64,000 bases of DNA from Gemmatimonadales bacterium (GCA_041615815.1 JBFJCP010000017.1:1-64000); one strand, 5' to 3'; positions 1,848 to 20,665 are shown, counted from the stretch's first letter. Notes: a model not told the origin generated them from the letters alone. Numbers and translations: made by a program.

Positions 1848-1867
1848 CATCGTCTGGTGCGAGATCG

Positions 1868-1883
1868 GCACGCGAGGGCGTGC
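1868..1883. terminator. Short inverted repeat between convergent genes
   Basis: GCACGC-gagg-GCGTGC, with no U-tract. Confidence 0.3.
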
Positions 1884-1892
1884 AACCGCGGA

Positions 1893-3830
1893 CTAATCGA
1901 TGGCGCTCGTCGTCGAGATTCGGTGCTCGTAGGGAGTGATCGAGCCTGACTCGGCGTAGAGGCGGTGCCACGTCGAGAAGCAGAGGAGGGCCCACAATGT
2001 TCCTTCCCAATTGTGTTTCCGCGAGGTGTGCTCGTCGATGAGGCGGGTGACGGTGTTCGGGTCGAAGAATCCCAACCGGCCCATGCGCGCCTCCGAGAGT
2101 TCGTCGGTGAGCATATCCCGAAGCTCGTGGCGCAACCACGCCGCCGTGGGTCCGACAAAGCCGCGTTTGGGAGCGGAGAAATGTTGGTCGGGGAGCCGCT
2201 CTCGCAGCGCGGCGCGCAGCAAGCGCTTCTTTTGGCCGAGGCCGATGCGCACCCGATCCGGCAATGGGAACGCACGCTCCACGAACGGATGGTCCACAAA
2301 CGGCACACGAATCTCGAGACTGTGGGCCATGGCCACCCGGTCGCTCAGGTGGAGGAGATCGTCAGGAAGGTAGGTCTTGTAGTCCAGGTACAACGCGGTT
2401 CGGACGCCGGCGTGCGCTCCCCCATCGTCGTGCAAACGGCGAAACAGATCGAGCGTGGGGTGATGCTGGATGATCTCCCGAATGCCGCTGGCGTAGAGGG
2501 TCCCACCGAGGCCGTTGGCCGGAAACCGGTTCAGCATGTCCAGATAACGATCGGTCGCGGCGCCACCGCTCACCCGCAGAAACCGCTTGAGCCGATTCAC
2601 CCCCGGGCTGGCGTCACGTGGTTCGGGCACGAGGTCGGCAAGGGCACTTGCGCCCTGTCGCAGAGCGCGTGGCAGGCGGGCATACCAATCGCTGAGCAGC
2701 AGCCCGAGATGTCTGGGGTATCCGGCGAACAGCTCATCCCCTCCCGTTCCCACCAGCGCTACCTTGTAGTCAGCGGCCACGGCCTCGGAGATGAGCCACG
2801 AGGGGATGGCGGAGTCATCGGCGTGGGGCTCGTCGAGCGCATGCACGATGGGCTCAAACAGCTCGCGAACGCTGGGTCGGACATCGACGACGGTTAATTT
2901 GGCCTGATAGCGTTTGGCGAGCAGACGCGCCAGGTCGGTCTCGTCCGCGGCGGCCGCACCCGTGCCGTGATAGCGCGCAGTAAAGGCGTGCGGCGGTTCC
3001 CCGGTTTGCGCCATGCTCGCCACGACCGCAGACGAATCGATCCCACCGCTCAGGAATGCCGCCACCGGGACATCGCTGACCATATGCGCCGCCACGGACT
3101 CGTCGAGCCACTCCAAAACGTGACGCTCGAGATCAGCGGGCGCGACGTCATCGCCCAGTGGTAGATCCCAGTACCGGTGGGTGGTGACGTCGCCGTCCCG
3201 CCAGCGCAGCCAGTGCCCGGGCTCGAGCTTGCGCACCGAGCGGAAGGGCGTGGCAGGGGCGGGGATGTAGCCCAGGCGGAAGTACATGTCGAGCGCTTGC
3301 CAGTCCAACTCGCCGCCGGTGAGCCCGACTGCATGCAGCGCCTTGAGCTCCGAGGCGAAGGCCAGACCCCAGGGGCCGCGCACGATATAGAGTGGTTTGA
3401 TTCCGAAGCGATCTCTGGCGAGCAACAGTGATTGGTCCGAGGCGTCCCAAAGGGCAAACGCAAACATGCCGCGAAGGCGCGTGACACACTCGGGTCCGAG
3501 CTCCTCGTAGAGATGCACGATGGTCTCGGTGTCCGAGCTGGTCTCGATGAGGTGTCCACGGGCCAACAGGTCGCGACGGAGGTCGCGATAGTTGTAAATC
3601 TCGCCGTTGAAGACGATGACCTTGGAACGATCTTCATTGAAGATCGGCTGGTGCCCGCCAGCGAGGTCGATGATACTCAAGCGCCGCATGCCAAGTCCCA
3701 CGCGCCCGGACACGAAGAGGCCCTGGTCGTCCGGCCCGCGGTGACGGATGGAGTCGCACATCTCGGTCAGCGTGGCTCGGGACACCCCGTGCTCCGGGGT
3801 CCGGTGGACGAGACCTACGATGCCGCACAT
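1893..3830 (-). CDS. asnB: Asparagine synthase (glutamine-hydrolysing)-family amidotransferase, polysaccharide-locus type
   Basis: Starts MCGIVG (Ntn Cys). Motifs HRGPD, RRLSIID, FNGEIYN, RDRFGIKPL, LSGGIDSS, GTGGDELFAGY, SLEIRVPF and PKRGF. Confidence 0.92.
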   Translation of the reverse strand: MCGIVGLVHRTPEHGVSRATLTEMCDSIRHRGPDDQGLFVSGRVGLGMRRLSIIDLAGGHQPIFNEDRSKVIVFNGEIYNYRDLRRDLLARGHLIETSSDTETIVHLYEELGPECVTRLRGMFAFALWDASDQSLLLARDRFGIKPLYIVRGPWGLAFASELKALHAVGLTGGELDWQALDMYFRLGYIPAPATPFRSVRKLEPGHWLRWRDGDVTTHRYWDLPLGDDVAPADLERHVLEWLDESVAAHMVSDVPVAAFLSGGIDSSAVVASMAQTGEPPHAFTARYHGTGAAAADETDLARLLAKRYQAKLTVVDVRPSVRELFEPIVHALDEPHADDSAIPSWLISEAVAADYKVALVGTGGDELFAGYPRHLGLLLSDWYARLPRALRQGASALADLVPEPRDASPGVNRLKRFLRVSGGAATDRYLDMLNRFPANGLGGTLYASGIREIIQHHPTLDLFRRLHDDGGAHAGVRTALYLDYKTYLPDDLLHLSDRVAMAHSLEIRVPFVDHPFVERAFPLPDRVRIGLGQKKRLLRAALRERLPDQHFSAPKRGFVGPTAAWLRHELRDMLTDELSEARMGRLGFFDPNTVTRLIDEHTSRKHNWEGTLWALLCFSTWHRLYAESGSITPYEHRISTTSAID

Positions 3831-3915
3831 GGTGTAACCTCTGGCACGGGCAGTCGCTCCTGGGGTGAGGCGTTGTCCGACCATCGTGGTCGGAACGCAG
3901 AACACGCTTGGGTGG

Positions 3916-3931
3916 CGCAAGGGAGGCGCCA
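3916..3931 (-). promoter_or_regulatory. Sigma-54 -24/-12 promoter for asnB
   Basis: Minus strand reads TGGCGCCTCCCTTGCG (GG-N10-GC). Confidence 0.7.
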
Positions 3932-3968
3932 GGAGCCCGCTGCATGGTTGGCTCCGCAAGAAGTATGA

Positions 3969-3993
3969 TAAGTTATTGTAAGTAACGTTATTA
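3969..3993. promoter_or_regulatory. 25-bp AT-rich quasi-palindrome, IHF-like site
   Basis: TAAGTTATTGTAAGTAACGTTATTA, lying between the sigma-54 promoter and the enhancer. Confidence 0.5.
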
Positions 3994-4032
3994 GGCCTAT
4001 TCCTGCCGTTCCGGAATCAGCAGCAGCGGTTC

Positions 4033-4060
4033 GTGACTGTTGCGTGAAGGCAACAGTCAC
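4033..4060. promoter_or_regulatory. Perfect inverted repeat, candidate enhancer (UAS) for a sigma-54 activator
   Basis: GTGACTGTTGC-gtgaag-GCAACAGTCAC. The core TGTTGC-N6-GCAACA recurs elsewhere in the window. Confidence 0.65.
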
Positions 4061-4188
4061 GGCCGGATTGCCGCTGTTGCGTCCTGCGACGGTGGTGGCT
4101 CGCTTGTTGCCATGCCCCGGTGTGATCGCCGCGGCGTACGTGTGGTGATGAGGTTGACGGCGCGGGACCGCCACAGGGTGCACTATCC

Positions 4189-5016
4189 ATGATGTCGATG
4201 CCAGTGGAAGCGAAAACAGCGGAACCCGATTCCGAGACCGCCCAGCGGCGGCCCGTCACGATCGTGATGTATCACTCGGTCGACCCGGAGGTCGATGCCT
4301 ACACGATCAGCCCGGACGCCTTCCTACGGCAGATACGGTTTCTCAAGCGTCACTTCGCGATCATTCGTCTCCATGATATCGAATCGGCGCTGAACGACAC
4401 GAGTGGGAGCGCCCGCAAGCTGGTCATCACGTTCGACGATGCGTTCCTCGACTTTCTGGAGGTCGCCTATCCCGTGCTCGCCGAGCACGAGGTTCCGTCG
4501 ACGGTGTTCGTACCCACGGGGTACGTCGGCGGGCACAATGACTGGGACGCCGCTCATCCCTCCTACCGGCGCAAGCGGCTGATGACGAAAGCGCAACTCC
4601 GGACGTTGTGGCAGGGCGGGCTGGTGGACTTTGGTTCCCACACGGTGACGCACGCACGAATGAGCGATCTTTCCACCGAGGATCTCCACAAGGAAACCGC
4701 GGAATCGAAGGGGGAGCTCGAAACCCTCTTGGGTGTGCCTGTCACGATGTTCGCCTACCCCTACGGCCAATTGGACGACATTTCGGAGCAGGCCGTCGAG
4801 GCCGTGCGGGCTGCCGGTTATCGGAGCGCCGTGACGACGCACTGGGGTGCATGGAACTCCGTGGATCAGCTGTTGCGACTGCGCCGGATTTACTTCCAGG
4901 AGGACGACTCGGATCGCGTGCTGGGGCTCAAGGCTACGGGCCTCTACGATTGGCGGAGTGCCAAGGAGCGGGTGGGGCACGCGGTGCGGAGCGTGCGACG
5001 CAAGCTCGGAGGGTGA
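4189..5016 (+). CDS. Polysaccharide deacetylase (CE4/NodB homology)
   Basis: Motifs MYHSV, ITFDDA, SHTVTH and FAYPYG. Confidence 0.88.
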   Translation: MMSMPVEAKTAEPDSETAQRRPVTIVMYHSVDPEVDAYTISPDAFLRQIRFLKRHFAIIRLHDIESALNDTSGSARKLVITFDDAFLDFLEVAYPVLAEHEVPSTVFVPTGYVGGHNDWDAAHPSYRRKRLMTKAQLRTLWQGGLVDFGSHTVTHARMSDLSTEDLHKETAESKGELETLLGVPVTMFAYPYGQLDDISEQAVEAVRAAGYRSAVTTHWGAWNSVDQLLRLRRIYFQEDDSDRVLGLKATGLYDWRSAKERVGHAVRSVRRKLGG

Positions 5017-5017
5017 A

Positions 5018-5035
5018 CGTTGCAGCGATGCAGCG
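5018..5035. promoter_or_regulatory. Candidate enhancer site upstream of the halogenase
   Basis: CGTTGC-agcgat-GCAGCG. Confidence 0.4.
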
Positions 5036-5094
5036 ATCACCGCCGCTGAGCTGCTGAGAGGCAGGCCAGTCCCCCTCGGCGAGGCACGGCAAGT

Positions 5095-5110
5095 TGGCCT
5101 GCTACTTGCA
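5095..5110 (+). promoter_or_regulatory. Sigma-54 promoter for the halogenase gene
   Basis: TGGCCTGCTACTTGCA (GG-N10-GC). Confidence 0.65.
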
Positions 5111-5253
5111 CCTGGGGCGTCTGCATTCGCGAGATACGCTCGCGATCGAGGGGACCGGGTCACCGTCCTCCTCGTTGAGCCCCGGACCGGTTCGGCACGA
5201 CTGACCGGGCCGTCGATCCGTGGGTGGACCACCAGCGAGACATTGGCGGTTTC

Positions 5254-6522
5254 ATGGCAGACGTCATCATCATTGGGGGAGGGCCCGCCGGCGCCACACT
5301 CGGCTGTTACCTCTCGAAGGCCGGCATCGACAACATCATCATCGAGAAGGCGATCCATCCGCGGCCGCACGTGGGCGAATCCATGGTGATGGCCACCGTG
5401 CGCATCTGGGATGAGATCGGGTTTCTCGAGACAATGGAAACCGAGCGTTTCCCCAAGAAGTACGGGGCTTCCTGGCACCCGGCGGGGAAGACCGAAGAGA
5501 TCGACATCGCGTTCCGCGAGTTCCCCCAGGAAGGAATCAACCAGGACTACACGTATCACGTGGACCGGGCCAAGTACGACCTGCTCCTGCTGAAGCACGC
5601 GGAGCAGTTGGGCTCGAAGATCTACGAAGGTGTCCAGGTCAAGGAAGTGCTGTTCGAGGACGGGACGGCGTGTGGGGTCCGGGCGGCGCTCGCCGACAAG
5701 GAAATCACCTTGAACGCCAAGGTGATCATCGATGCCACGGGGCGGGACACGATCCTCGGACGCCAGCTCAAGCTCAAGAAGAACGATCCTATTTTCGACC
5801 AGTACGCCGTCCACGCTTGGTACGACAACGTCGACCGCGGCACGGTACCCACGGACGACTACATCCATATCTACTTCTTACCGGTGGAGCGCGGCTGGGC
5901 GTGGCAGATTCCCATCACGGACGAGATCACGTCGATGGGCGTCGTGGCGGAAAAGGATGTGTTCCGGGCTGCGAAACTGGACGTCGAGGGATACTTCCAG
6001 AAATACGTGGACTCCAACCCCAATCTGGCCGCCGCCATGAGGCCGGCCCGGCGCCTCAACGACTTCAGACGGGAAGGCGATTACAGCTACAGCATGCGGA
6101 AGTTCTGCGGCGATGGGTGGATGCTGCTCGGCGACGCCGCGCGATTCGTCGATCCCATTTTCTCCTCGGGCGTGAGTGTGGCCATGCACAGCGCCAAGTT
6201 CGCAGCCGAACGCATCTGGTGTGCGCTGGAGCAGAACCGGTTCGACCGAGAGATTCTCCTGCCTTACGAGACGAAGCTGCGTGGTGGGGTGGAGATCTGG
6301 TACGACTTCATTCGACTGTATTACAAGCTCCTGCCTCTCTTCACGCACTTCATTCAAGCGCCGGAGCACCGGCTGGGCTTGCTCCAGCTATTGCAGGGCG
6401 ACGTGTACGAGCGCGAGGAGTGTCCGCCGGTGCTGGATGCCATGCGCAACTACGTCCAGACCGTCGAGGAGACACCCAACCACATTCTCCGCAAGTATCT
6501 CACTGACATCCCGGTGGGGTGA
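5254..6522 (+). CDS. FAD-dependent halogenase, PltA-like (pyrrolyl-carrier protein halogenase)
   Basis: GGGPAG, HVGES, FPKKYGA (catalytic Lys region), WAWQIP halogenase motif, GDAARFVDPIFSSGVSVA, and a C-terminal YYKL...LLQGDVY resembling PltA as recalled. Confidence 0.85.
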   Translation: MADVIIIGGGPAGATLGCYLSKAGIDNIIIEKAIHPRPHVGESMVMATVRIWDEIGFLETMETERFPKKYGASWHPAGKTEEIDIAFREFPQEGINQDYTYHVDRAKYDLLLLKHAEQLGSKIYEGVQVKEVLFEDGTACGVRAALADKEITLNAKVIIDATGRDTILGRQLKLKKNDPIFDQYAVHAWYDNVDRGTVPTDDYIHIYFLPVERGWAWQIPITDEITSMGVVAEKDVFRAAKLDVEGYFQKYVDSNPNLAAAMRPARRLNDFRREGDYSYSMRKFCGDGWMLLGDAARFVDPIFSSGVSVAMHSAKFAAERIWCALEQNRFDREILLPYETKLRGGVEIWYDFIRLYYKLLPLFTHFIQAPEHRLGLLQLLQGDVYEREECPPVLDAMRNYVQTVEETPNHILRKYLTDIPVG

Positions 6523-6554
6523 GGCCAGCGGGGGGCACGCCCCTTAGCACGAAC

Positions 6555-6586
6555 GCGCGGCAGGTCCCCACGGGTCCCTGCCGCGC
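6555..6586 (+). terminator. Stem-loop after the halogenase
   Basis: GCGCGGCAGG-N12-CCTGCCGCGC followed by ctcgttt. Confidence 0.55.
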
Positions 6587-6641
6587 CTCGTTTCCGGTCT
6601 GTTCCGGACCGAGGTGGCACCCTACCTTGGCGAGGCCTCAG

Positions 6642-6657
6642 AGGAACGGACCTTGCA
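6642..6657 (+). promoter_or_regulatory. Sigma-54-like promoter for the dehydrogenase/adenylation operon
   Basis: AGGAACGGACCTTGCA (GG-N10-GC). Confidence 0.5.
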
Positions 6658-6704
6658 CTTCTCTGAGGAGCCCGAGGCGGTGGGGAGGACGATGAAAGAA
6701 CTCA

Positions 6705-6729
6705 TAACACGTTGTAATACAATAACGTA
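6705..6729. promoter_or_regulatory. 25-bp IHF-like quasi-palindrome
   Basis: TAACACGTTGTAATACAATAACGTA (TTG-N5-CAA core). Confidence 0.5.
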
Positions 6730-6746
6730 GAGGGTTTTGCCAGCTC

Positions 6747-7904
6747 ATGGAATTCTCGTGGAACGACCAGCAGCGCGAGTTCCGCCAGGCGGTGGTCGAG
6801 TTCGCGCGACGAACCCTGGACAGCGATGTGATGGCGCGCGAGCAGCGGGGCGAGTTCGCCCGCGACCTCTGGCAACAATGCGCCGAATTCGGCATCCAGG
6901 GTCTCCCGTTCCCCCCGGAGTACGCCGGGATGGGGGAGGATGTCGTGACGACCATGTTGGCGATGGAGGCGCTGGGTTACGCGTGTAAGGACCGCGGGCT
7001 CCTCTTCTCGATCCACGCGCACATGTGGAGCGTGGCGATGCCGATCTTGTCCTTCGGGTCAGAGGAACAGAAGCGCCGCTACTTGACCAAACTGTGTGAC
7101 GGAAGTTGGGTCGGTGCCCACGCCATGAGCGAACCGGACACCGGTTCAGACGCCTTCGGGCTCACGACGCGAGCTGAGCGCCGGGGAGACCGCTACATCC
7201 TGAACGGTGCGAAGACCTTTTGTACCAATGCCCCCGTGGGCGACCTCTTCGTCGTCTTCGCCACTGTGGACAAGAACAAGGGGATGTTCGGTGTCACGGG
7301 TTTCTTGGTGGAGAAGGGCACCAGCGGCCTCACGGTCGGCCAGCCCATTCCCAAGATGGGTCTCACGACCTCGCCGATGGCGGAGGTGATCCTGGAGGAC
7401 TGCGAGGTCCCGGCGGAGAACGTGTTGGGCCGCGAAGGATTGGGGGCCACCATCTTCAATCACTCCATGGGGTGGGAGCGGAGCTGCATTCTGGCCACCG
7501 ATGTGGGCGCGATGGAGCGTCAGCTCGAGACCTGCATCTGCTACGCGAAGGAGCGGCGCCAGTTCGGGAAACCCATTGGCAACTTCCAGCTGGTGGCGTC
7601 CAAGATCGCGGATATGAAGGTGCGTCTCGAAACCTCGAAGCTCCTCCTGTACAAAGCGGCCTGGAGTCAGTCCAGGAACGAGATGAGCGCCATCGACGCG
7701 GCGATGGCCAAGGTCTACATCAGCGAGGCTGCCGTGGCCTCGGCACTGGATGCGATCCAGGTGCACGGTGGGTACGGATACATGAAAGAGTTCGAGATCG
7801 AGCGGGAATTGCGTGACGCGATCGGCGGCAAGTTGTACTCGGGTACGTCCGAGATCCAGCGGCTCATCATCGCTCGCAACCTCGGGCTCACGCCGAAGAA
7901 CTGA
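6747..7904 (+). CDS. Acyl-CoA dehydrogenase family; L-prolyl-carrier protein dehydrogenase-like (PltE/RedW/CloN3 type)
   Basis: SEPDTGSD, LNGAKTFCTNAP, RRQFGKPIG and HGGYGY. Has SMGWER, and YSGTSEIQ where most ACADs have YEGT. Confidence 0.82.
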   Translation: MEFSWNDQQREFRQAVVEFARRTLDSDVMAREQRGEFARDLWQQCAEFGIQGLPFPPEYAGMGEDVVTTMLAMEALGYACKDRGLLFSIHAHMWSVAMPILSFGSEEQKRRYLTKLCDGSWVGAHAMSEPDTGSDAFGLTTRAERRGDRYILNGAKTFCTNAPVGDLFVVFATVDKNKGMFGVTGFLVEKGTSGLTVGQPIPKMGLTTSPMAEVILEDCEVPAENVLGREGLGATIFNHSMGWERSCILATDVGAMERQLETCICYAKERRQFGKPIGNFQLVASKIADMKVRLETSKLLLYKAAWSQSRNEMSAIDAAMAKVYISEAAVASALDAIQVHGGYGYMKEFEIERELRDAIGGKLYSGTSEIQRLIIARNLGLTPKN

Positions 7905-7918
7905 CGGCTGGAGGCGGC

Positions 7919-9529
7919 ATGGCGTTCTTGTTGTGGCAGTACTTGAAGGACAGTGCGGAGCGGTACCCGCAGCGCCCCGCAGTCGCGTGGCGTGACACGG
8001 TGCTCTCCTATGCAGAGCTCGATGACCTGAGTACGCGGCTTGCGGTGGCGCTCCGCTCGAGCGGGGTGGGTCCCGGCGCAAGGGTGGCGCTGTACATGCC
8101 GAAGTCGGCGTGGAGCGTCGTGGCCATGCACGGCATCTCCAAGGCCGGCGCGGCATACGTTCCCATCGATCCCAATCAGCCGGGCCGGCGCGCAGCCTTC
8201 ATCATGAAAGATTGCGGTGTGCGGGCGGTCGTGACCACGCATCGCAAGCTGCACCAACTCGTCAGCGTCTTGCCGGAGTTGGAAGCGCTCGAGGCCATCG
8301 TGCTCACCGACGAACACAAGAAGCCACCTCCAGACGTGGGTGCCCGGCGGATTCACCATTGGCGCGACCTGGCGGAGATCGCGGTGGAAGAGCCCCTGGT
8401 GCCGGCCAACGTGGAGACGGACCCAGCGTACCTCCTCTATACCTCGGGATCCACGGGCAATCCCAAAGGTGTGATTCTGAGCCACCGTCACGCGCTGACG
8501 TTCGTCGACTGGGGTGCCGACGCGTTCCACGTGGGTCCGGAGGATCGCCTGTCCAATCACGCACCGCTCCATTTCGACTTGTCGGTGTTTGACATCTACG
8601 TGGCCATGAAGACCGGCGCCTGCGTGGTCATGGTACCTGATGAGGCCAATGCATTCCCAGTACAGCTGGCCGAGTGGATCGAACGCCAAGGCATCACTGT
8701 CTGGTACTCCGTGCCTTCCGCGCTCATCAGGATGTTGCTGCATGGCAATCTGGACCGATTCGGATACGAGAAGGTGCGCACGGTGCTCTATGCCGGTGAG
8801 CCCTTCCCGGTGAAATACCTCCGGGATGTCATGGCGAGATTTCCCGCCGCGACGTTCTACAACCTCTATGGCCCAACGGAGACCAACGTCTGCACCTACC
8901 TCCCGGTGCCGGATCCCATCCCGGCGGAGATGGCGGACATTCCGATTGGACGCGCCTGTGCCAACACCGAGGTCTTTGCCGTGAGTGCTGAGGGTCACGT
9001 CATTGGCCCGGGGGAGGAAGGCGAACTCTATGTGCGGGGTCCCACCGTGTTGCTGGGGTACTGGGGGCTACCCGAGAAGACCGAACAGGTGCTCGTCTCC
9101 AACCCGTTCCAATCTGCGTACCAGGAACCGGCCTACCGTACCGGTGACATCGTCCGTCTCGAGAAGGATGGCTCGTATGTGTTCGTGGGCCGCAAGGACC
9201 ACATGGTGAAGTCGCGGGGCTATCGTATCGAACTCGGCGAAATCGAACAGGCGCTCTACCAGCACGAAGGGGTTCGGGAGGCGGTCGTGGTGGCCATCCC
9301 GGATGACGAAGTGGGTGCGCGTCTCAAGGCCGTCATCGTGGCCCACGAAGGGGTGACCCTCTCGCGCAACGAGTTACAAACGTTTTGTCTGGACCGTCTG
9401 CCGCGGTACATGGTGCCTGAGTACTATGACTTCTTGGATAAGCTGCCGCGCACGTCGACGGGGAAGGTGGATCGGGTGACCTTGGCTACAGACGCCGCGG
9501 CAGAACCGGAGCGTGTGCCGACGAGCTGA
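7919..9529 (+). CDS. Stand-alone amino acid adenylation enzyme; L-prolyl-AMP ligase-like (PltF/RedM/CloN4 type)
   Basis: YTSGSTGNPKG, HFDLSVFDIY, WYSVPS, LYAGE, NLYGPTETNVC, YRTGD, GYRIELGEIE and LPRTSTGKVDR. Confidence 0.85.
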   Translation: MAFLLWQYLKDSAERYPQRPAVAWRDTVLSYAELDDLSTRLAVALRSSGVGPGARVALYMPKSAWSVVAMHGISKAGAAYVPIDPNQPGRRAAFIMKDCGVRAVVTTHRKLHQLVSVLPELEALEAIVLTDEHKKPPPDVGARRIHHWRDLAEIAVEEPLVPANVETDPAYLLYTSGSTGNPKGVILSHRHALTFVDWGADAFHVGPEDRLSNHAPLHFDLSVFDIYVAMKTGACVVMVPDEANAFPVQLAEWIERQGITVWYSVPSALIRMLLHGNLDRFGYEKVRTVLYAGEPFPVKYLRDVMARFPAATFYNLYGPTETNVCTYLPVPDPIPAEMADIPIGRACANTEVFAVSAEGHVIGPGEEGELYVRGPTVLLGYWGLPEKTEQVLVSNPFQSAYQEPAYRTGDIVRLEKDGSYVFVGRKDHMVKSRGYRIELGEIEQALYQHEGVREAVVVAIPDDEVGARLKAVIVAHEGVTLSRNELQTFCLDRLPRYMVPEYYDFLDKLPRTSTGKVDRVTLATDAAAEPERVPTS

Positions 9530-9578
9530 TCCCCGGACAGGCGCTGCCCGGCGGACGGGCGCGTAGGAGGCAACAAAG

Positions 9579-9610
9579 GCGGCGACCGACGTGTGGGCGA
9601 CGGTCGCCGC
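9579..9610. terminator. Stem-loop between convergent genes, possibly bidirectional terminator
   Basis: GCGGCGACCG-N12-CGGTCGCCGC. Confidence 0.55.
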
Positions 9611-9658
9611 TCGCGTTTGGTCGCGTCCCGGCAGCCGACTCCGGGGGCGCCGCGCGGT

Positions 9659-9910
9659 CTAGGCCGCTGCCTTTGTTTCGATGAAGCGCTCGATTGCCGT
9701 CAGCGTGTCGAGATTGTCCGCCACGATGTCGTGCGGTGCCACGCTGATGCTGAACTCCTGCTCCAGGAATGACACCAGCTTGAGCGAGGCGATGGAGTCG
9801 AGCAGGCCCGAGGAGAAGAGCTGCGTTTCTTCGGTCAGCTCGTCCGGATCCTCACCTGGCAAGAACTCCTCGAGAATGAACTGCTTCACGGTCTGCTTCG
9901 TGTCTGGCAT
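9659..9910 (-). CDS. Acyl/peptidyl carrier protein
   Basis: 83 aa and acidic, with the GLLDSI phosphopantetheine Ser motif and a GGAGGAG SD upstream. Confidence 0.88.
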   Translation of the reverse strand: MPDTKQTVKQFILEEFLPGEDPDELTEETQLFSSGLLDSIASLKLVSFLEQEFSISVAPHDIVADNLDTLTAIERFIETKAAA

Positions 9911-12569
9911 GGGATAATGCTCCTCCCGTGAGGGTCGAAATGGCCGTGCGATCGGCGAACAACGCGGCCGACAATGTCGGGTCGGCGTGCTCCAGCGCGT
10001 CGTACAAGCGATCCGCGATCAGCCGATGTGCTGCCGCATTGGGGTGTCCGTCCCACTCGGCGATCCAGAACGACTTGAGGTCGTGGCCGTCGAATACGCC
10101 GGACAGGTCGAGGGTGACGAACCCGGCTTCTTGAGCGAGTCGAAACAGGTTGGCGACCCGCGGATCGGATTGATCCGCGGCGGCGCCGGGGCGTGTCGCA
10201 CTCCCGAAACAGAAAGCGGAGCGCTCTGGTGGACAGGGTCGATCCGCGCCGGGGGTCGGCATCGGCAGGAAGACCCACACCGGAACGATCTCCCGAGCGC
10301 GCGCGTCGGCGACGACCTTCCGGTACGCCCAGCTCATGAGCTCGCTCTCCAACGGCACGAGACGACGGGCGACCTCGTTGTGATTCATGCCCACCCGCAC
10401 GCCCGCCCGATCCAGCAGCGTTTGTAGCTCTGGATAGATGATCTCCGACGAATCCGTCATGCGGCGCGCCACGTCCTCGATGGCCTTGGCGGCACTGACC
10501 TCGTGGTCCACGTAGAACACGGCGTCGGGATCGAAAGGCAAGGCCTTTGCTTCGAAGACGCGTACTAGCGACGGGGCACCGTACGCCTCCGAGGCGAGAT
10601 TGAGGATCTCGTAGACGCGCGTGCCATTGGATTGCTCGTTGAGGCGCTCCTCCACCAGGGACTCGAAGGTCTCGTTGTCCGCCACTCCCGAGCCGAGCAC
10701 CGGGGAGGCCCCGAGCATCGCCACCCGGAAGGTGTTGTCCGGCTTGCTGAGGGTGTAGTCCCGATCCCGCATGCCCCACTGGTTCGTCGTGAACGGTGCG
10801 CTCTTGTACACGATGTGCGTGGATGGCACCAATTCGGTTCGCAGGAAGTCGTCTGTGTTTCGGAGGGCCTCGGTCTCCCAGAGATCTCGCCAATCGGAAG
10901 GGCGCTTGGCGTACAGTTTCCACAACTCGGGATTGAACCGCTCCACGCCAAGGAGGTTCTCGTAGTAGCCTCGCTCCAAGAGGGCCTGATCCTGGCGGTT
11001 GAGACGCGGCTCACGGAGCGACAGCATCGTCGTCGCGACCGGCGAGTCGATTCTGGTGAGTACGCGTGGATGGCCCATCACCAGCAGGCCCACGAGCAAC
11101 ACCGTGGTCCAAACCGGCGATTGCCTGAGCACCGTCAAACGATGCCACACCGCGGCTGGGCTCATGCTGGTCTTGGTCTCTTGGGGCTCGGACCCCGAAC
11201 CCGTTCGCACCGTGGTGCCGACGGCCACGCCCAGGACGACGATGACGGGGCCCAAGCCTTCGAGCGCGAGGTCACCGCGTCCGAAGACCTTCCATAGGGC
11301 GAGCCATTCGCCCACCGAGTCGGATTGCCAGAGCGACCAGAGTACGCAAAGCACCGTGAATGTCGCCGCCGTCTTGAGCGCCTTCACCGTGAACTCCCCT
11401 GGCGTCATGCCCTTTTTGCCCAGCCGGCGTTTCCGTCCCTTCTTGGCCTCCCACACGGCATTGATCACCACGAACACGGCGAGGATGGTCCAGAACACGG
11501 CATCGGGCGTGGACAAGACGAACGATCCCCGGATCCAATACCACTGGTACGAATGCAGCACCATGGTCGCGACGAACACGACGAGCGTGGCGAGGATGAG
11601 CGCGGCGGTTCCCCCGAAGCGTCTCAGCCAGAAGAAGCTCGGGTAGTAGAAGATCTTCATCATGAAGTCTTTCCAATAGATGTTGATCCGCCGCCAATAG
11701 TCCGTGAAGCTCGACGCGAGGAAATACAGGTGATGCGTCTCGGGGAGGTTGAACCCGAACAGGTGCATCATGCCGATGAAGAGGTGGAACAGTCCCGAGA
11801 TGCGCAGATAGAGCATGTAGTTCGTGACAACGAACTGCACGAAGTCACCCGCGGTTTGTACCTGTTCGGGCGCAAGCGTCAGGTAGTAATAGACGAAGCG
11901 ATAGAGAATGAGATGGACGACCCCGCGGAACATCCACGTGACGCCCTTCTGATAGATCGCGTACTCCTCTTCGTTGTAGTAGGTGCGCCGGAACGTGCGG
12001 TAGTCCACCACCGGAAACAGCGGCGCCACCACGTTGGGCAGCATGAAGAAGTACGACAAGGTGGACGACGGGGTCAGCAACGACTTGTCGTGCCGCAGGT
12101 CGTACATGTAAATGAGGAGTCGGAACATGAACATGGACCCCAGGATGGGCCAAATGGCCCCGGTCCAGGGGGCCGGGATCCAGGTCTCGCGAAACGCGAC
12201 GAGGGAGACACCCGCTCCCAACAGCAACGTGACCCGCGTCCAGTACGAGAGCGGAAGGTGACAGATCCCGATCAGCACGAGCCCCACGGCGATCAGCCAG
12301 AGTCCCGCCTCGATCCCCATGACCACCGCAATCCCTGTGAGCGACAGCAGCGCAAAGAAGGGGAGTCGTTGTCGCAGGGGGAGCAGGGAGTGGATGACGA
12401 AGCCGACGAACGCGAGGAACGTCACGTAGACGAAGGATCCGCTCTCGAGCTGGTATTGCCGGACGGCCACAACCAGCAACGCGAGCGGAATCACCACCCC
12501 CAACCACCGGCCCACCGCCGCCCGCATGTCTTCGGCCAACCACCGTTCCCTGGCAACGCCAACAGCCAT
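9852..12569 (-). CDS. MBOAT acyltransferase (AlgI/DltB-like) fused to a C-terminal SGNH-like domain (AlgJ/DltD-like)
   Basis: Multi-TM N-half with GFNLPE, SFTDYWRRINIYW and VLHSYQW (MBOAT His). C-terminal domain has TNQWGMRD, RVAMLGAS and DGHPNAAAH. GGAGG SD present. Confidence 0.82.
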   Translation of the reverse strand: MAVGVARERWLAEDMRAAVGRWLGVVIPLALLVVAVRQYQLESGSFVYVTFLAFVGFVIHSLLPLRQRLPFFALLSLTGIAVVMGIEAGLWLIAVGLVLIGICHLPLSYWTRVTLLLGAGVSLVAFRETWIPAPWTGAIWPILGSMFMFRLLIYMYDLRHDKSLLTPSSTLSYFFMLPNVVAPLFPVVDYRTFRRTYYNEEEYAIYQKGVTWMFRGVVHLILYRFVYYYLTLAPEQVQTAGDFVQFVVTNYMLYLRISGLFHLFIGMMHLFGFNLPETHHLYFLASSFTDYWRRINIYWKDFMMKIFYYPSFFWLRRFGGTAALILATLVVFVATMVLHSYQWYWIRGSFVLSTPDAVFWTILAVFVVINAVWEAKKGRKRRLGKKGMTPGEFTVKALKTAATFTVLCVLWSLWQSDSVGEWLALWKVFGRGDLALEGLGPVIVVLGVAVGTTVRTGSGSEPQETKTSMSPAAVWHRLTVLRQSPVWTTVLLVGLLVMGHPRVLTRIDSPVATTMLSLREPRLNRQDQALLERGYYENLLGVERFNPELWKLYAKRPSDWRDLWETEALRNTDDFLRTELVPSTHIVYKSAPFTTNQWGMRDRDYTLSKPDNTFRVAMLGASPVLGSGVADNETFESLVEERLNEQSNGTRVYEILNLASEAYGAPSLVRVFEAKALPFDPDAVFYVDHEVSAAKAIEDVARRMTDSSEIIYPELQTLLDRAGVRVGMNHNEVARRLVPLESELMSWAYRKVVADARAREIVPVWVFLPMPTPGADRPCPPERSAFCFGSATRPGAAADQSDPRVANLFRLAQEAGFVTLDLSGVFDGHDLKSFWIAEWDGHPNAAAHRLIADRLYDALEHADPTLSAALFADRTAISTLTGGALSHARHEADREAVHSRGVLAR

Positions 12570-12695
12570 CTAGCCTCCCAATTGCTCCACGTCAGACGTC
12601 ATCGCGCGAACGCCTGTGGGGATATCAGGATCCGGGCCACCACCGAGGGACAATCGGGGCTCCCCCGAAGCGTGTACGGGCCACCGGAATGAACA

Positions 12696-12720
12696 TAAGT
12701 AGTTATATTTAAATAAGTTA
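12696..12720. promoter_or_regulatory. 25-bp IHF-like quasi-palindrome
   Basis: TAAGTAGTTATATTTAAATAAGTTA. Confidence 0.5.
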
Positions 12721-12771
12721 CGATATTGCACGAAAATGTGGTGACGGAGCGTCCGTTTGCTCGATGGCTGG

Positions 12772-12789
12772 TGTTGCGACGATGCCACA
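12772..12789. promoter_or_regulatory. Candidate enhancer upstream of MBOAT-carrier operon
   Basis: TGTTGC-gacgat-GCCACA. Confidence 0.5.
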
Positions 12790-12802
12790 ATCGGCTCCGC
12801 CC

Positions 12803-13981
12803 TCATCGTGCTCTCGGTCCCACGGAGTCTCGGGCGGGGACTCGCGCAAGCGGCTGCTCGCTGGCCGGAAGCACGTCACGATAGAACTCCAGGTACCGGT
12901 CCGCCATGCGGCCGGCGGTGAATCCGTCGAGAAACCGCGCACGCGCTGCGCTGGCGAGCGTGTGACGGAGCGGAGGATTACCAAGGACGCGCTCGAGCGC
13001 CTCGGCGAGACGGTCGACATCGTTGGGCGGGACGAGAATCGCCTCGGACTCGTCACGCGCGATCGCGGGGATCGATCCCACCTCGGTGGCGACAATGGGC
13101 ACCGCGCACGACATGGCCTCCAACACGGAGATGGGCATGCCCTCGGTTTGAGAGGGTAGGACGAAGCAATCGCAGCGTCGGAGCAGACTCGGGACATCCT
13201 CGACAAAGCCCAGAAACTCCACGCGATCCCCCAAACCGAGCGCCGCGCACTGTCGCTCGAGCGCTTCGCGAAACGGGCCCTCACCGGCGAGGAGGAGGCG
13301 GATGTCGGGGAACGGTTTCGCCAGCCGGTGCAACGCGTCGAGCAGCACGTGGACATTCTTCTTGCGAATGAGACGGCCCACACACAGCAAGACGGGCCCT
13401 GCCCGCGGATGCGCGGCGCGGGGCTGGTCGTTGGCCCGGTCGGCGATCCCATTCGGGATGACCCGGACGCGGTCGGAGGGCACGCCGCGGTCCATCAGCT
13501 CCAGGCGCACGGGCTCGGACACGGCAACGATGCCGCGGAGCCGCCGCAGGATCTGGCTCTCGAAGCGCACGATCGAGCTTGAGACATGGACGTCGTGGGC
13601 GGCGTGGGTGTGAAACGTGGCAACGGCCGGCGCGCGCCGGGCCACCGCGTAGGTCCCGGCCACGATGGTGGCTTTGTAGCCGTGAAAGTGCATGACCCGC
13701 GGCGATGCGGAGCGGAGGATCTTGCGCAGGCGAAGGAGCCCCTTGGGCGAGATCCGACCCGCGAGCCCGGCATACGAGACGGGAACACCCAGGGCGGCAG
13801 CGGCCTGGCCCAGGGCGTGGCCGGGTCCGTGCGCGGATCCCAAACACACCAAGGCGGCAGGGCAGCCCCGCGCGCGGAGCGCCGGCAGCAGATCCAATAG
13901 CATGCGTTCGATGCCGTAGAGCCCGCCGCTGGCCACCAGATGCACGATGGCGCCGGGATTAGGGGCTGAATCCGATGTCAC
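12803..13981 (-). CDS. Glycosyltransferase family 4 (GT-B)
   Basis: YGIER, VGRLIRKKN and FVLPSQTEGMPISVLEAM (E-X7-E). Confidence 0.9.
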   Translation of the reverse strand: MTSDSAPNPGAIVHLVASGGLYGIERMLLDLLPALRARGCPAALVCLGSAHGPGHALGQAAAALGVPVSYAGLAGRISPKGLLRLRKILRSASPRVMHFHGYKATIVAGTYAVARRAPAVATFHTHAAHDVHVSSSIVRFESQILRRLRGIVAVSEPVRLELMDRGVPSDRVRVIPNGIADRANDQPRAAHPRAGPVLLCVGRLIRKKNVHVLLDALHRLAKPFPDIRLLLAGEGPFREALERQCAALGLGDRVEFLGFVEDVPSLLRRCDCFVLPSQTEGMPISVLEAMSCAVPIVATEVGSIPAIARDESEAILVPPNDVDRLAEALERVLGNPPLRHTLASAARARFLDGFTAGRMADRYLEFYRDVLPASEQPLARVPARDSVGPRAR

Positions 13982-15095
13982 TGTCGCCGTGGCTCAGATG
14001 CCATTGCCGCTCATCATAGACCAGGTCCTGGAGCGCATCGTCGCCTTTCCATAACATCCAGGCGGGGCGATCGAGTCCGCGCGGTCTGAAATACAGGTAG
14101 CGCTGCACGCGCCGCCGGAGGCTGGGATGGAGTCCGAGGCACGAGATGATGGCCGCGTCGTGTGCGGCAAACTGATCCACGGCCGCCGCCACCAACGTGT
14201 CTACCATTTCAGGGGTGTTGGGATCGCCAAAGAGGTCCATAATGCGGCCCACGCGCATCCCACGACGATCGACCAGGCGAAGCGCAACGTAGCCGGCCAC
14301 CTGGCCAGTGGGATTCCGGGCCATCATCACACGGTGATCGAACACGGGGTCGTCGAGGAAGCGCCATTGCACGAAGCTCGCATCACGGACCGCGATGAGC
14401 GGGAAGCGGTCTTTGAGCTCGAGCCAGAGAGCGTCGAATTCGGGCCCGGCGTGTTCGACCATGTGGGCGGTCCACCCGGATGGGATTCGCGGCGCCCGGG
14501 TTCGATTCAGCGCCGCCGCGGCCCCGTCCATGAGCGGCCCCACGAGCGGACGCATCCACGCCAATGGCGCGCGGGCGAACGCCCTGGGTATCCGGGGCGA
14601 TCGTTGCACGTACCGCAGGACCGCGCTCGGACGAATCGGCCGGTAGTAGAATGGGACCGCGTGCAGCGGCTGGTAGCCGACGCGGCCGCGGATTCGGCCA
14701 TTGGCCGGCGCATAGGCCAGGGCATTCGACAACGGGTTGGGAAACTCGTCATACGCACGGACGAGCCGCTCGCCAATGCCCAAGCGGCGCGTCCGCGATG
14801 AGACGATGAGATCGCAGTCGTGATAAATGATGGTCTCGAGGTCACCGAACTTCATACGCGTGGGAAACGAGGCGAGAAATCCTACCACGGCGCCGTCCAG
14901 GTCCGCCACCCAGAGGTGGGAAGCCACCCGTCGGTTCACGGGATTCTCGAAGAACTGCCAGCGCCAGCGTCGTCGGAAGAGCTTGAGCGCTTGGTCGCCA
15001 AAGACCTCGCCATAGAGAGCGAACACACCGTCGTAGTCCGCCTCGGTGCAGCTTCGAATCTCCACCGATGGAACTGCCGTGGTCGTCGTTTTCAC
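13959..15095 (-). CDS. GNAT-family N-acyltransferase, polysaccharide-locus type (start 15095 or 15185)
   Basis: WRWQFFENP, VSSRTRRLGIGERL (motif A) and a second GNAT-like half with RDASFVQWRF. Confidence 0.75.
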   Translation of the reverse strand: MKTTTTAVPSVEIRSCTEADYDGVFALYGEVFGDQALKLFRRRWRWQFFENPVNRRVASHLWVADLDGAVVGFLASFPTRMKFGDLETIIYHDCDLIVSSRTRRLGIGERLVRAYDEFPNPLSNALAYAPANGRIRGRVGYQPLHAVPFYYRPIRPSAVLRYVQRSPRIPRAFARAPLAWMRPLVGPLMDGAAAALNRTRAPRIPSGWTAHMVEHAGPEFDALWLELKDRFPLIAVRDASFVQWRFLDDPVFDHRVMMARNPTGQVAGYVALRLVDRRGMRVGRIMDLFGDPNTPEMVDTLVAAAVDQFAAHDAAIISCLGLHPSLRRRVQRYLYFRPRGLDRPAWMLWKGDDALQDLVYDERQWHLSHGDSDIGFSP

Positions 15096-15259
15096 TCCTC
15101 GTTCCCGAGGTTGAAGTCGGCATCCGGCACTGCCGCCCAGACGGGGACGCGGGCCGGTCGCCGGAATAGGATATGCGGTAGCCACGCCGCGGGCCCACGG
15201 TACAGCAGGCCGCGGGGCGCCGGCGTGCGCTCAGTCACAGACCGTCGCGGCCTCCGGGT

Positions 15260-15387
15260 CGCAAGAGCCGTGCAGTCCGACGATACTTCGTGAAGTGGTT
15301 TTGGGAAAGCGAGTTACGAGCCGGTGGACACAGAGACCTCGATTCGGATTCCCGGCCGGCAACCGACAGTGTTGTCTGCTTGCAACA
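15260..15387 (-). promoter_or_regulatory. Sigma-54-like promoter (degenerate -24), IHF-like site and enhancer for the GNAT-GT4 operon
   Basis: Minus-strand CTGCACGGCTCTTGCG at 15260-15275, GAAGTGGTTTTGGGAAAGCGAGTTA at 15292-15316, and TGTTGT-ctgctt-GCAACA at 15370-15387. Confidence 0.45.
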
Positions 15388-15421
15388 GTCCTGGCACCGA
15401 GGGAACGACGGCGGTGTCGTG

Positions 15422-16621
15422 GTGAACCTCGGATGGAGCTTCGTGGGGGTGGGCTTGGCCGTGGCGCTGTACGCCTACGTCGGCTATCCCGCGGTGCTCT
15501 GGCTCCTGGGGAAGATGAAGCGGCCCGCGTCGCGAGTGGCGCACGCGGGTGAGCCGCCGTTGGTCACCGTCACGATTCCGGTCTACAACGAAGCCCACAA
15601 CATCGCGGACGTGCTCGATCGCGTGTTGGCGAGTGACTATCCCAGGGACCGACTGCAAGTGCTGGTCATCTCCGATGCGTCGACGGACGGCACGGACGAG
15701 ATCGTGCGTTCGTACGTGGCACGAGGCGTCGAGCTCGTTCGCTTGAAGCAGCGAGGCGGCAAGACCGCGGCGGAGAACGCATCGCACGAGCATGCGCGCG
15801 GCGAGATCATCGTCAACACCGACGCTTCGGTGCGCATCCACCCCGATGCCATTCGGCACTTGGTAGCCGCCTTCGCCGACCCGACCGTGGGCGTGGCCTC
15901 CGGACGGGACGTGTCGGTGACGCACGCGACGGCGGAACAGACGTCGGGCGAGTCGGGCTATGTGGGATACGAGATGTGGGTTCGGCAGCTCGAGACCGCC
16001 GTGTCTGGTATTGTGGGCGCCTCCGGATGTCTGTTTGCCAACCGAGCCGATCTGCATCGGGAGAGGGTGCCGGCGGAGCTGAGTCGGGATTTTGCCGCGC
16101 CACTGATCGCCCGAGAGCACGGATACCGCGCGGTGTCGGTGCACGAGGCCGTGTGCCACGTTCCCCGTACGGCGTCGCTTCACCGGGAGTACCGCCGCAA
16201 GGTGCGCACGATGACGCGCGGTTTGACGACACTGGCGTTCAAACGCCAGCTGTTGAACCCGTTCCGGTACGGCGGGTTCGCCTGGATGCTCTTCAGCCAC
16301 AAGGTATGCCGGTGGTTGGTGCCGTGGGCTGGCGTGCTTGTGCTCGTGGGATTGGCCGTGTTGGCCGTGACGGCGTTATGGGCGCGGGTGGTCTTGGGAC
16401 TCAGCGCCGCTCTGGCCGTGGTCGCGGGCATCGGATGGCTGTGGCCCAAAGATGCGCGGCTCCCCCGTCTCGTGGCGCTTCCCACCTTCGCCATCGCGGC
16501 CAACGTCGCTGCGCTTCACTCGACGCTGAAAGCGCTCGGGGGTGGCGCGAGCTCGGTCTGGGAGCCGACGAGACGAGAAGCGGACGGACCTCAGATGGAA
16601 AGTCTGAAGGTCGGGAAGTGA
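15422..16621 (+). CDS. Glycosyltransferase family 2, membrane-anchored
   Basis: YAYVGYP TM segment, IPVYNE, SDASTDGT, GGKTAA, NTDAS and EYRRKVR, with C-terminal TMs. Confidence 0.88.
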   Translation: MNLGWSFVGVGLAVALYAYVGYPAVLWLLGKMKRPASRVAHAGEPPLVTVTIPVYNEAHNIADVLDRVLASDYPRDRLQVLVISDASTDGTDEIVRSYVARGVELVRLKQRGGKTAAENASHEHARGEIIVNTDASVRIHPDAIRHLVAAFADPTVGVASGRDVSVTHATAEQTSGESGYVGYEMWVRQLETAVSGIVGASGCLFANRADLHRERVPAELSRDFAAPLIAREHGYRAVSVHEAVCHVPRTASLHREYRRKVRTMTRGLTTLAFKRQLLNPFRYGGFAWMLFSHKVCRWLVPWAGVLVLVGLAVLAVTALWARVVLGLSAALAVVAGIGWLWPKDARLPRLVALPTFAIAANVAALHSTLKALGGGASSVWEPTRREADGPQMESLKVGK

Positions 16622-16828
16622 AGGCGTCGGCACGCGGCAGGTTGGTCTAGCGGTCCGTCCTTCAGACCTCCCTCTTCCAACCTCCCAGCGTGCAAGACCT
16701 CCCATCCGCTCGCCCTCCGTCCCTACACAAACAACGCGGCCAGTCCGGCGGCGAGAAGTGGGAGGGACTCTCGCGAGCAACAGGCCTGGACTGGCCGGGT
16801 TGGTTTCAGTACGCTGCGCTGGCTTGTG

Positions 16829-18885: not shown

Positions 18886-19062
18886 CCCCTCGGTCCGGCG
18901 CGAGTCTGTTCGTTGGAGCGGTAGGGTGTTGCAATGAATATCCTGTCAGGGCAACCGGCAAGGGGCAAGGATCTGCTCTCGATGGGCGCGCGCCGAAGGT
19001 ATTGACGGACGATCCCCCCCCTGTGACACCGGGCACACCCCGACGTGGCCTACCGAATGGGT

Positions 19063-20580: not shown

Positions 20581-20665
20581 CCAACCGCCTCCGTCGTGGT
20601 GTGAGCAACCTGTCTGGTGCCCGGGCCCGTCCAATAGGGACGCGAGCGGGTTCGAGACCCCCCGA

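Follow-up and report, generated by a model that had tools for sequence, protein, structure and literature searches.

Two architectures have been described for the acylation of bacterial envelope polymers, namely a membrane-bound O-acyltransferase (MBOAT) with a separate SGNH protein, or a fused AT3-SGNH protein, and the MBOAT/SGNH pathways other than Dlt are reported to have no carrier protein (PMC12148441). In Dlt the donor is a carrier thioester, and in MBOAT/SGNH pathways the acyl group travels on the tyrosine of a FXYXXF motif between the MBOAT histidine and the SGNH serine (PMC12148441). The first 64 kb (64,000 nucleotides, hereafter called the window) of a 98-kb contig, C17, from the 4.19-Mb, 96 % complete genome of a Gemmatimonadales bacterium (GCA_041615815.1, JBFJCP010000017.1:1-64000) contain at positions 5254 to 12569 a cassette of five genes which fits neither architecture, having MBOAT and SGNH domains fused in one protein that is tied to a carrier protein and a predicted aromatic acyl group. 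From the genes, residues, folds and linkage described below, the cassette is predicted to code for a Dlt-like relay that would take a (halo)pyrrole-2-carbonyl group out through the inner membrane, most likely to be ester-linked to a surface polysaccharide, a reading to which a probability of about 0.5 is given. The genes, and the parts of the fused protein, are:

5254 to 6522, plus strand: flavin-dependent halogenase, PltA-like, 422 amino acids, with GxGxxG at 8, Lys69 and WAWQIP at 215
6747 to 7904, plus strand: prolyl-carrier-protein dehydrogenase of acyl-CoA dehydrogenase (ACAD) fold, 385 amino acids, with Glu244
7919 to 9529, plus strand: stand-alone adenylation enzyme, predicted to be L-proline-specific, 536 amino acids, pocket DLFYLALVC
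9659 to 9910, minus strand: peptidyl carrier protein (PF00550), 83 amino acids, with Ser39 in LDSI
9852 to 12569, minus strand: fused MBOAT-SGNH protein, 905 amino acids
11298 to 12443, minus strand: its MBOAT domain, residues 43-424, with His339 at 11553-11555
10953 to 10970, minus strand: its GYYENL segment, residues 534-539, a candidate internal tyrosine acyl shuttle
9960 to 10910, minus strand: its SGNH-fold domain, residues ~554-870, with Ser622 at 10704-10706 and Asp840-x-His842 at 10044-10052

All five open reading frames (ORFs) of the cluster proposed in a first-pass annotation were intact and open, and the annotated overlap between the 3' end of the fusion gene and the carrier gene was confirmed as 59 nucleotides. 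The overlap lies in a different frame, so the carrier and the 905-residue protein are not fused to each other, and the carrier gene has its own ribosome site, GGAGGAG. The order of the genes, with halogenase, dehydrogenase and adenylation enzyme on the plus strand and carrier and fusion on the minus strand, corresponds to two convergent units and no single operon, a point which the annotation had not made. Positions 1352 to 16700 were covered by three overlapping contigs from run X1, possibly the source of the DNA, and for the most part also, piecewise, by run X5 of a second study, with 0-3 differences per piece.

When 7999 candidates were scored against the 905-residue protein, at least 3387 proved to be homologs, the closest named ones being from Gemmatimonadales and Longimicrobiales. 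A scan of viral contigs gave no relative, and a single-protein query did not find the fusion in two genomes of the same genus (91 and 94 % complete). Neither Pfam PF03062 nor a sequence search of the PDB identified an MBOAT in it. An alignment of 121 family members, compared by hhalign with 15 AlgI-type MBOATs, gave a probability of 96.7 % (E 3.3e-10, 336 columns), pairing His339 with the His of the WHG motif and WRRIN with WRRWH. In the predicted model (pLDDT, a per-residue confidence score, 86.4), residues 43-424 were closest to DltB (Z 20.0, root-mean-square deviation (rmsd) 4.9, 363 residues aligned), followed by PORCN, HHAT, MBOAT7 and LPCAT3, and the SGNH domain was similar to CgnD (Z 20.2, rmsd 3.7, 253 residues aligned) and to GDSL esterases; DltD, AlgX and PatB were not among the 50 fold matches listed, which does not exclude them. 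Because the profile and fold comparisons were positive, the missed Pfam and PDB matches are taken to reflect divergence, and the protein is classed, by sequence and model, as a divergent MBOAT. The fused architecture given in the first-pass annotation is thus one on which profile, fold and catalytic residues agree, although Pfam and PDB sequence searches alone would give no MBOAT.

The catalytic residues were compared in 112 full or nearly full fusion ORFs taken from the loci retrieved; in a few cases the same DNA is represented twice, and some genomes contribute two ORFs. His339 was retained in 112, Ser622 in 109, Asp840 in 101 and His842 in 103, with gaps accounting for most of the exceptions; the Ser-His-Asp triad of the PatAB and AlgIJ SGNH partners is present here as conserved S622, D840 and H842. 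A transferase-type oxyanion hole would have the Gly of block II replaced and an Asn in block III. At position 662, in what is probably block II, the protein has Ala where 81 of the 112 ORFs have Gly, and no conserved Asn was found in these ORFs at 684-696, the block III region, both blocks being assigned by sequence position only. Y535, Y536 and E537 were present in 109 of the 112, the remaining three having gaps or X. They form part of a G-Y-Y-E-x-L segment between the MBOAT and SGNH domains, and this segment is covered by one of only two internal stretches of the model with pLDDT below 50 (534-545). Each of the 15 control MBOATs has FxYxxF at its C-terminal end; the profile alignment breaks off immediately ahead of this motif, at a point ~30 residues N-terminal to GYYExL. 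By analogy, GYYExL may be a built-in equivalent of the FXYXXF shuttle, and it is regarded as a candidate for this role.

The other four genes were considered in the first-pass annotation to supply a pyrrole starter unit, and the PDB matches, the pocket code, the conserved Glu and the ranking of the carrier all support this. The dehydrogenase matched PDB entries 4irn (471 bits), 6cxt (337) and 5zw0 (323), which we take to be AnaB, Bmp3 and PigA, ahead of ordinary acyl-CoA dehydrogenases (295 bits or less), and four of its top five PDB sequences are either named as prolyl-acyl/peptidyl carrier protein dehydrogenases or carrier-bound; PltE was absent from the PDB matches, and the comparison was made without it. 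The scores with the NCBIfam models for PigA (463.7, cut-off 500) and RedW (441.7, cut-off 650) were below the equivalog cut-offs. Glu244 aligned with the Glu of the WER motif in 4irn and 6cxt, and Glu was retained in 91 of 92 linked homologs; such a Glu is described as essential for pyrrole formation in PMC10849742. The same paper describes the chalkophomycin N-hydroxylation enzyme as an ACAD with Met at this position (PMC10849742), and N-hydroxylation of that type was rejected for the dehydrogenase, in which the Glu is kept.

The top single-domain PDB match of the adenylation enzyme was 6o6e, an L-proline--[L-prolyl-carrier protein] ligase (369 bits), and its pocket region scored 148 bits with 6o6e, compared to 77 with DltA. 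According to the alignments, its pocket DLFYLALVC differs at one of nine positions from the DLLYLALVC of 6o6e and PltF, having there the F that is also found in 7thn (DLFYIAWVC), from which a specificity for L-proline is predicted. Among 93 linked adenylation domains, 55 had DLLYLALVC and 25 DLFYLALVC, i.e. 80 had one of the two codes. With TIGR01734, the model for D-alanine-activating DltA, the enzyme scored 306.7 bits, below the cut-off of 559.85. For the carrier, 2my5, PltL and PigG ranked ahead of DltC in the PDB, and the NCBIfam match to an ornithine-lipid acyl carrier protein (94.5 bits) was below the cut-off of 130. The genome has no second match for the carrier and only one prolyl-type ACAD.

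The halogenase has the features of a PltA-type enzyme, i.e. GxGxxG, the Lys which is catalytic in flavin halogenases, WxWxIP and full-length similarity to PltA. Its PDB matches were PltA (423 bits, full length), ChlB4 (415) and 5buk (408), with the next at 181, and K69, W215, W217, I219 and P220 were invariant in 40 aligned homologs. Genes for a flavin reductase and for two phosphopantetheinyl transferases are found on other contigs of the genome. In a tree of 62 halogenases constructed with a quick method, with no characterised enzyme and with loci below 8 kb lacking a partner gene excluded, the fusion-partner label required 9 changes, at least 6 of them forced.

A scan of species-representative genomes gave at least 602 confirmed fusion stretches out of 620 matched, showing the family to be common, and the best 79 loci, 52 of them at least 15 kb in length (long loci), were examined. 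These 79 span Betaproteobacteria, Chloroflexota, Acidobacteriota, Gemmatimonadota, Rhodothermales, Deltaproteobacteria and others. The carrier gene was present in 68, abutting or overlapping the fusion gene in most loci, the adenylation enzyme in 56, the dehydrogenase in 56 and all three in 54 (44 of the 52 long loci). A ketosynthase occurred in none of the 79 and condensation domains in one (L085), so that the consistent linkage of homologous cassettes to polyketide synthase (PKS) or nonribosomal peptide synthetase (NRPS) genes, which the first-pass annotation had named as evidence that would count against it, was not observed. In 401 genomes of the host phylum the fusion was found in 22, the prolyl-type dehydrogenase in 29 (19 shared with the fusion) and the PltA-like halogenase in 10 (9 shared); the dehydrogenase was thus present in 19 of 22 fusion-positive and 10 of 379 fusion-negative genomes. 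Related strains are not independent in these counts, six of the nine genomes with halogenase and fusion belonging to one genus. From these co-occurrences, dehydrogenase, adenylation enzyme, carrier and fusion form a conserved four-gene core, with the fusion as its only constant downstream partner. The functional link between the two halves of the cassette proposed earlier was upheld; the conserved unit has four genes and not five, the halogenase being an add-on (5 of the best 79 loci).

The four-gene core occurs in named strains and is thus open to testing, for example in Aromatoleum anaerobium LuFRes1 (L036) and on the 1.39-Mb plasmid pMVF16-2 of Microvirga sp. VF16 (L252). On this plasmid, which was the sole plasmid match among 72,556 records, the core has wzc, a sugar transferase gene and GT4 and GT2 genes as neighbours. 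Several host-phylum loci (L121, L122, L126, L128, L130, L131 and L134) have two copies of the fusion, and in these loci up to three more distant WxWxIP halogenases (27-33 % identity to that of the window) are found beside the dehydrogenase.

As an optional addition to the core, the PltA-like halogenase was adjacent to the fusion in host-phylum genomes G000, G332, G119 and G209, and some WxWxIP halogenase, often two or three more distant ones, lay within the fetched stretch in 8 of 20 phylum loci. The order asnB-deacetylase-halogenase-ACAD-adenylation enzyme-carrier-fusion of the window was matched in locus L135 with 52-80 % identity; L136, with a halogenase identical to that of L135 (the two were counted once), repeats the order at this level of identity as well, and in both loci a second carrier and hydrolase-fold genes are added. 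Among 80 metagenome loci of related halogenases the fusion was found in 6, AT3 acyltransferases in 18, a condensation domain in 1 and a ketosynthase in none. The AT3 genes were accompanied by adenylation, carrier or dehydrogenase genes in 15 of the 80 loci, 11 of these with other glycan genes, and the AT3 assignment in L170 was confirmed by Pfam.

Starting from these observations, the relay would operate in five steps. Judging from its pocket, the adenylation enzyme would almost certainly load L-proline onto Ser39 of the carrier, and the dehydrogenase would very probably oxidise the prolyl group to pyrrole-2-carbonyl-S-carrier. The halogenase would quite probably chlorinate or brominate the pyrrolyl-carrier, using FADH2 from a reductase encoded elsewhere. 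By analogy with DltX and PatA, the carrier may then dock on the MBOAT, where His339 would pass the acyl group to Tyr535 or Tyr536. Finally, Ser622 of the SGNH domain would, rather likely, take up the acyl group and acylate a hydroxyl of a glycan outside the membrane, the acceptor being the weakest step.

The recurring neighbours of the fusion are mostly glycan genes, namely genes for GT4, GT2, asnB, Wzy/ligase, flippase, sugar transferase, exosortase and pyruvyl-, carbamoyl- and formyltransferases. Glycan queries derived from the window gave at least one match in 20 of the 52 long loci and two or more in 10, or 4.29 per 100 kb, compared to 0.47 per 100 kb (14 of 172 tiles) without C17 and 1.31 with C17 in the control, which was this one genome. 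A wider query set, partly derived from the loci themselves, gave a match in 30 of the 52. Window-type matches were found in only 3 of 18 host-phylum loci; Pfam detected genes for sulfate activation, sulfotransferases, sulfatase-domain proteins, flippases and Wzy near several phylum loci, and in G209, G119, G346 and G117 wzc/wza or glycosyltransferase clusters occur in adjacent stretches. Ten phylum genomes had the dehydrogenase and no fusion, and in these its locus appeared glycan-related in 3, NRPS-linked in 2, PKS-linked in 1 and unclear in 4.

Several findings count against the proposed relay, and they are considered here with the alternatives they favour. It is unlikely, although a serious possibility, that the same relay serves another acceptor, i.e. 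a lipid or lipid-linked sugar, a surface glycoprotein, peptidoglycan or water, the last of which would give free (halo)pyrrole-2-carboxylate outside the cell. Only 20 of the 52 long loci had a glycan gene by the window-derived queries, and even the wider query set recognised none within ~10 kb in 22 of them; in several Betaproteobacteria the cassette lies amid housekeeping genes, the hosts comprise Chloroflexota as well as diderm phyla, and PMT-like glycosyltransferases recur in 6 loci. Counting against the relay as such, GYYExL departs from the FXYXXF sequence and lies inside the chain, not at its C-terminus. The closest folds of the SGNH domain are mostly esterases, and Gly at the probable block II position, mostly kept by the fusion family, is linked with hydrolases in PMC12148441. 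On the other hand, glycan genes are the largest recurring class of neighbours, at 3 to 9 times their density in the control, the characterised MBOAT-SGNH pairs covered in PMC12148441 act on envelope polymers, and release of a free acid needs no membrane relay. A polysaccharide is retained as the best guess for the acceptor, and not as a result.

As to the acyl group, it is distinctly improbable that pyrroline-5-carboxyl, prolyl or plain pyrrolyl is exported, with the halogenase idle or acting on another substrate. Such an export would be in line with 4irn as top match of the dehydrogenase, by a wide span in bits over 6cxt and 5zw0, since the pathway product of AnaB is pyrroline and not pyrrole, and with the missed PigA and RedW cut-offs. 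ChlB4, which acts on a phenolic acyl group bound to an acyl carrier protein, nearly equals PltA as match of the halogenase (415 and 423 bits); a PltA-like halogenase is absent from 74 of the best 79 fusion loci, being linked in only 5, and lies on another contig in 5 of the 9 phylum genomes with both genes. Against it, the halogenase gene lies directly upstream of the ACAD gene on the same strand, is near the ACAD gene in L135 and accompanies adenylation, carrier and ACAD genes in many loci with its motifs intact, the genome lacks a second carrier match and has one prolyl-type ACAD, and PltE was missing from the comparison in which 4irn came out on top. Very improbable is a use of the halopyrrolyl-carrier as starter for an NRPS encoded elsewhere, the membrane protein having a separate job: NRPS genes do occur in the genome, on C49, C16 and C1, with a condensation domain at the start of the protein from C49, the window begins at a contig end, NRPS genes adjoin the cassette in L085, a homologous NRPS end with a phosphopantetheinyl transferase and a sulfotransferase lies just upstream of a halogenase and a split fusion in L215, and the NRPS or PKS linkage in three of the ten dehydrogenase-positive, fusion-negative phylum genomes fits as well, but no condensation domain was found in 78 of the best 79 fusion loci, no ketosynthase in any, and the carrier gene adjoins the fusion gene in most. 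Hardly to be expected, finally, is a transfer of the pyrrolyl group by the GNAT protein to an amino-sugar nucleotide in the cytoplasm, giving an N-acyl sugar and leaving the fusion with another donor. GNAT and GT4 genes adjoin the fusion here and in L009, loci L242 and L246 combine adenylation, carrier and ACAD genes with GNAT and without the fusion in glycan-type surroundings, and the contig codes for amino-sugar enzymes; yet a GNAT homolog was found in 1 of the best 79 fusion loci, compared to 68 with the carrier, and no gene for another acyl donor recurs beside the fusion.

The relay to a polysaccharide would be in keeping with the position of the cassette, at the left edge of a glycan region and ~5 kb from the left end of the contig. 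The flanking deacetylase, asnB, GT4 and GNAT genes of the first-pass annotation were all located at the flanks given, and the surroundings include:

1893 to 3830, minus strand: AsnB-type amidotransferase, putatively for glycan amidation, syntenic in L135 and L009
4189 to 5016, plus strand: polysaccharide deacetylase, by domain match, syntenic in L135
12803 to 13981, minus strand: GT4 glycosyltransferase, adjoining the fusion in L009 as well
13959 to 15185, minus strand: GNAT-domain protein, probable start 15095, adjoining the fusion in L009 as well
15290 to 16621, plus strand: GT2 glycosyltransferase, by domain match
16829 to 17542, minus strand: initiating sugar-phosphate transferase (PF02397)
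21042 to 23444, plus strand: Wzc-like chain-length/tyrosine kinase, by domain match, belonging to the polysaccharide locus around the cassette
27989 to 33387, plus strand: Wza-like export protein, CysQ-like phosphatase, sulfate adenylyltransferase/adenylylsulfate (APS) kinase and SLC13 transporter

Contig C17 as a whole consists mostly of surface-glycan genes, including Wzc, two Wza-type exporters, three PF02397 proteins, many GT4 and GT2 proteins, flippases, amino-sugar enzymes, two asnB genes and sulfate activation. The sulfate-supply genes at 27989 to 33387 suggest a sulfated glycan, and those at 28827-33387 together with the phylum loci suggest one with several decorations. The absence of ketosynthase, condensation domain, thioesterase and FabH-like genes, annotated earlier for 64 kb, holds for the whole 98-kb contig (type II thioesterase in the case of the thioesterase), DNA to the left of the contig end being unseen; the queries included type I ketosynthase and FabH, and their targets were detected on other contigs of the same genome.

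Between the cassette and the export genes, 17782-20844 and 23482-24495 code for a histidine kinase, a sigma-54 response regulator and a receiver-GGDEF protein, which are candidate regulators of the locus. The protein encoded at 123-1847 is probably secreted or lipid-anchored; it has a long poly-proline linker and a weak beta-helix match (E 0.001) and is perhaps a glycan-binding protein or lyase. In the gap at 6523-6746 between the halogenase and dehydrogenase genes there is a GC-rich inverted repeat, and an AT-rich stretch precedes the start of the dehydrogenase gene, so that separate transcription of the halogenase is possible; a promoter and terminator scan, which did not score this inverted repeat, found nothing above shuffled sequence.

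In other genomes, sulfate activation, sulfotransferase and tandem ~600-residue sulfatase-domain genes often flank the fusion loci L116, L119, L120, L123, L125 and L251. Loci L242, L246 and L247, from genomes in which the fusion was not found, have the adenylation/carrier/dehydrogenase set in glycan-type surroundings, with GNAT, hexapeptide-repeat or hydrolase-fold neighbours. A second carrier gene, a hydrolase-fold pair, or both lie beside the pyrrole set at L135:8184-10316, L245:5826-7573 and L247:10596-12289, and these genes are possibly a further transfer route. A gene of the PF00999 Na+/H+ exchanger family adjoins the PltA-like halogenase in 19 of the 80 metagenome loci (L135-L214) and also in L035, L086, L216-L218 and L220, and a TauE-family gene is near it in L188 and L215; possibly, these neighbours supply halide. 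With respect to the NRPS genes of the genome (C49, C16:1-14118 and C1:1-4866; L235-L237), one set follows genes for an aromatic amino-acid lyase, a sulfotransferase and a thioesterase, and two of the proteins have a terminal carrier domain and no thioesterase, with small genes after them and, in the case of C1, also a phosphopantetheinyl transferase gene. The homologous NRPS end beside the halogenase and split fusion is at L215:1-5492.

A parallel arrangement, in which one to four AT3 genes accompany a set of adenylation, carrier, dehydrogenase and halogenase genes, was observed inside glycosyltransferase loci L149, L152, L157, L160, L167-L170, L178, L182 and L184. AT3 proteins, the second known family that acylates surface glycans, are reported as users of acyl-CoA (PMC9558356); a carrier as donor for AT3 would, given that report, be new.

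Literature searches, which did not extend to supplements and most subscription journals, gave no description of a system of this kind. The text of PMC9558356 and PMC9912281 covered contained no pyrrolyl glycan ('pyrrol' 0 times), and that of PMC3210612 covered had none either, only N-acyl groups of the oxopyrrolidine-carboxyl type; PMC8269204 and PMC9426513 had no bearing on the question. It is suggested tentatively, with somewhat less than an even chance of being correct, that the fusion represents a widespread class of envelope acylation not found described, in which a single-chain MBOAT-SGNH protein would receive an aromatic natural-product unit from a carrier protein and export it by way of its own tyrosine shuttle, and which in the lineages with halogenase would give a capsule or exopolysaccharide esterified with chloro- or bromopyrrole and possibly sulfated. 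If this is true, halopyrrolyl glycans would be a recurring type of bacterial polymer, the pyrrole cassette being wired also to AT3, and part of the bound organohalogen of soils, sediments and sludge would come from a source so far unrecognised. With a polysaccharide as acceptor, there would be a bacterial glycan decorated with pyrrole or halopyrrole, and a route to the enzymatic aryl-acylation of polysaccharides.

Compared with known systems, the fusion has in common with PatA/PatB, AlgI/AlgJ/AlgX and WssH/WssI a homologous MBOAT core, the catalytic His, an SGNH partner and a position in polysaccharide loci. The PatA, AlgI and WssH pairs are separate proteins with an acyl-CoA donor, no carrier protein and a C-terminal FXYXXF, as described in PMC12148441, whereas the fusion family lacks the C-terminal FXYXXF, has WRRIN for WRRWH, escapes PF03062 and has a carrier. 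The AT3-SGNH fusions OatA and OafA resemble it in uniting membrane acyltransferase and SGNH domains in one polypeptide, with a Tyr intermediate that has its candidate counterpart in GYYExL (PMC12148441, PMC9558356), but its membrane domain has the unrelated MBOAT fold, and AT3 proteins are reported to be acyl-CoA-dependent (PMC9558356).

With PltF/PltL/PltE/PltA of pyoluteorin, PigI/G/A, Bmp4/1/3/2 and AnaC/D/B the locus shares the four enzyme types, with pocket, Glu, Lys and WxWxIP kept; unlike those, it has no PKS, NRPS, FabH or type II thioesterase gene on the contig, and downstream the membrane acyltransferase is its one conserved partner. A precedent for a proline-derived, carrier-made pyrrole-2-carbonyl ester on a sugar is found in clorobiocin and coumermycin, where CloN/CouN transfer the pyrrolyl group to noviose; these soluble acyltransferases work in the cytoplasm, have a small-molecule glycoside as substrate and are not known to involve a membrane relay. 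In common with the teichoic acid D-alanylation system (DltA/DltC/DltB/DltX/DltD) the locus has a stand-alone adenylation enzyme, a carrier, an MBOAT whose top fold match is DltB, and an SGNH domain with Ser and Asp-x-His, all of them encoded together in the window and in the 44 complete long loci. It differs in its proline-type pocket, in the added dehydrogenase and halogenase, in the MBOAT and SGNH domains being in one polypeptide, in its hosts, which are mostly non-Firmicutes, and in that no FXYXXF microprotein was identified among ORFs of 60 amino acids or more, the internal GYYExL occupying its predicted place. The locus is therefore Dlt-like in its working and no member of Dlt, being fused and not specific for D-alanine.

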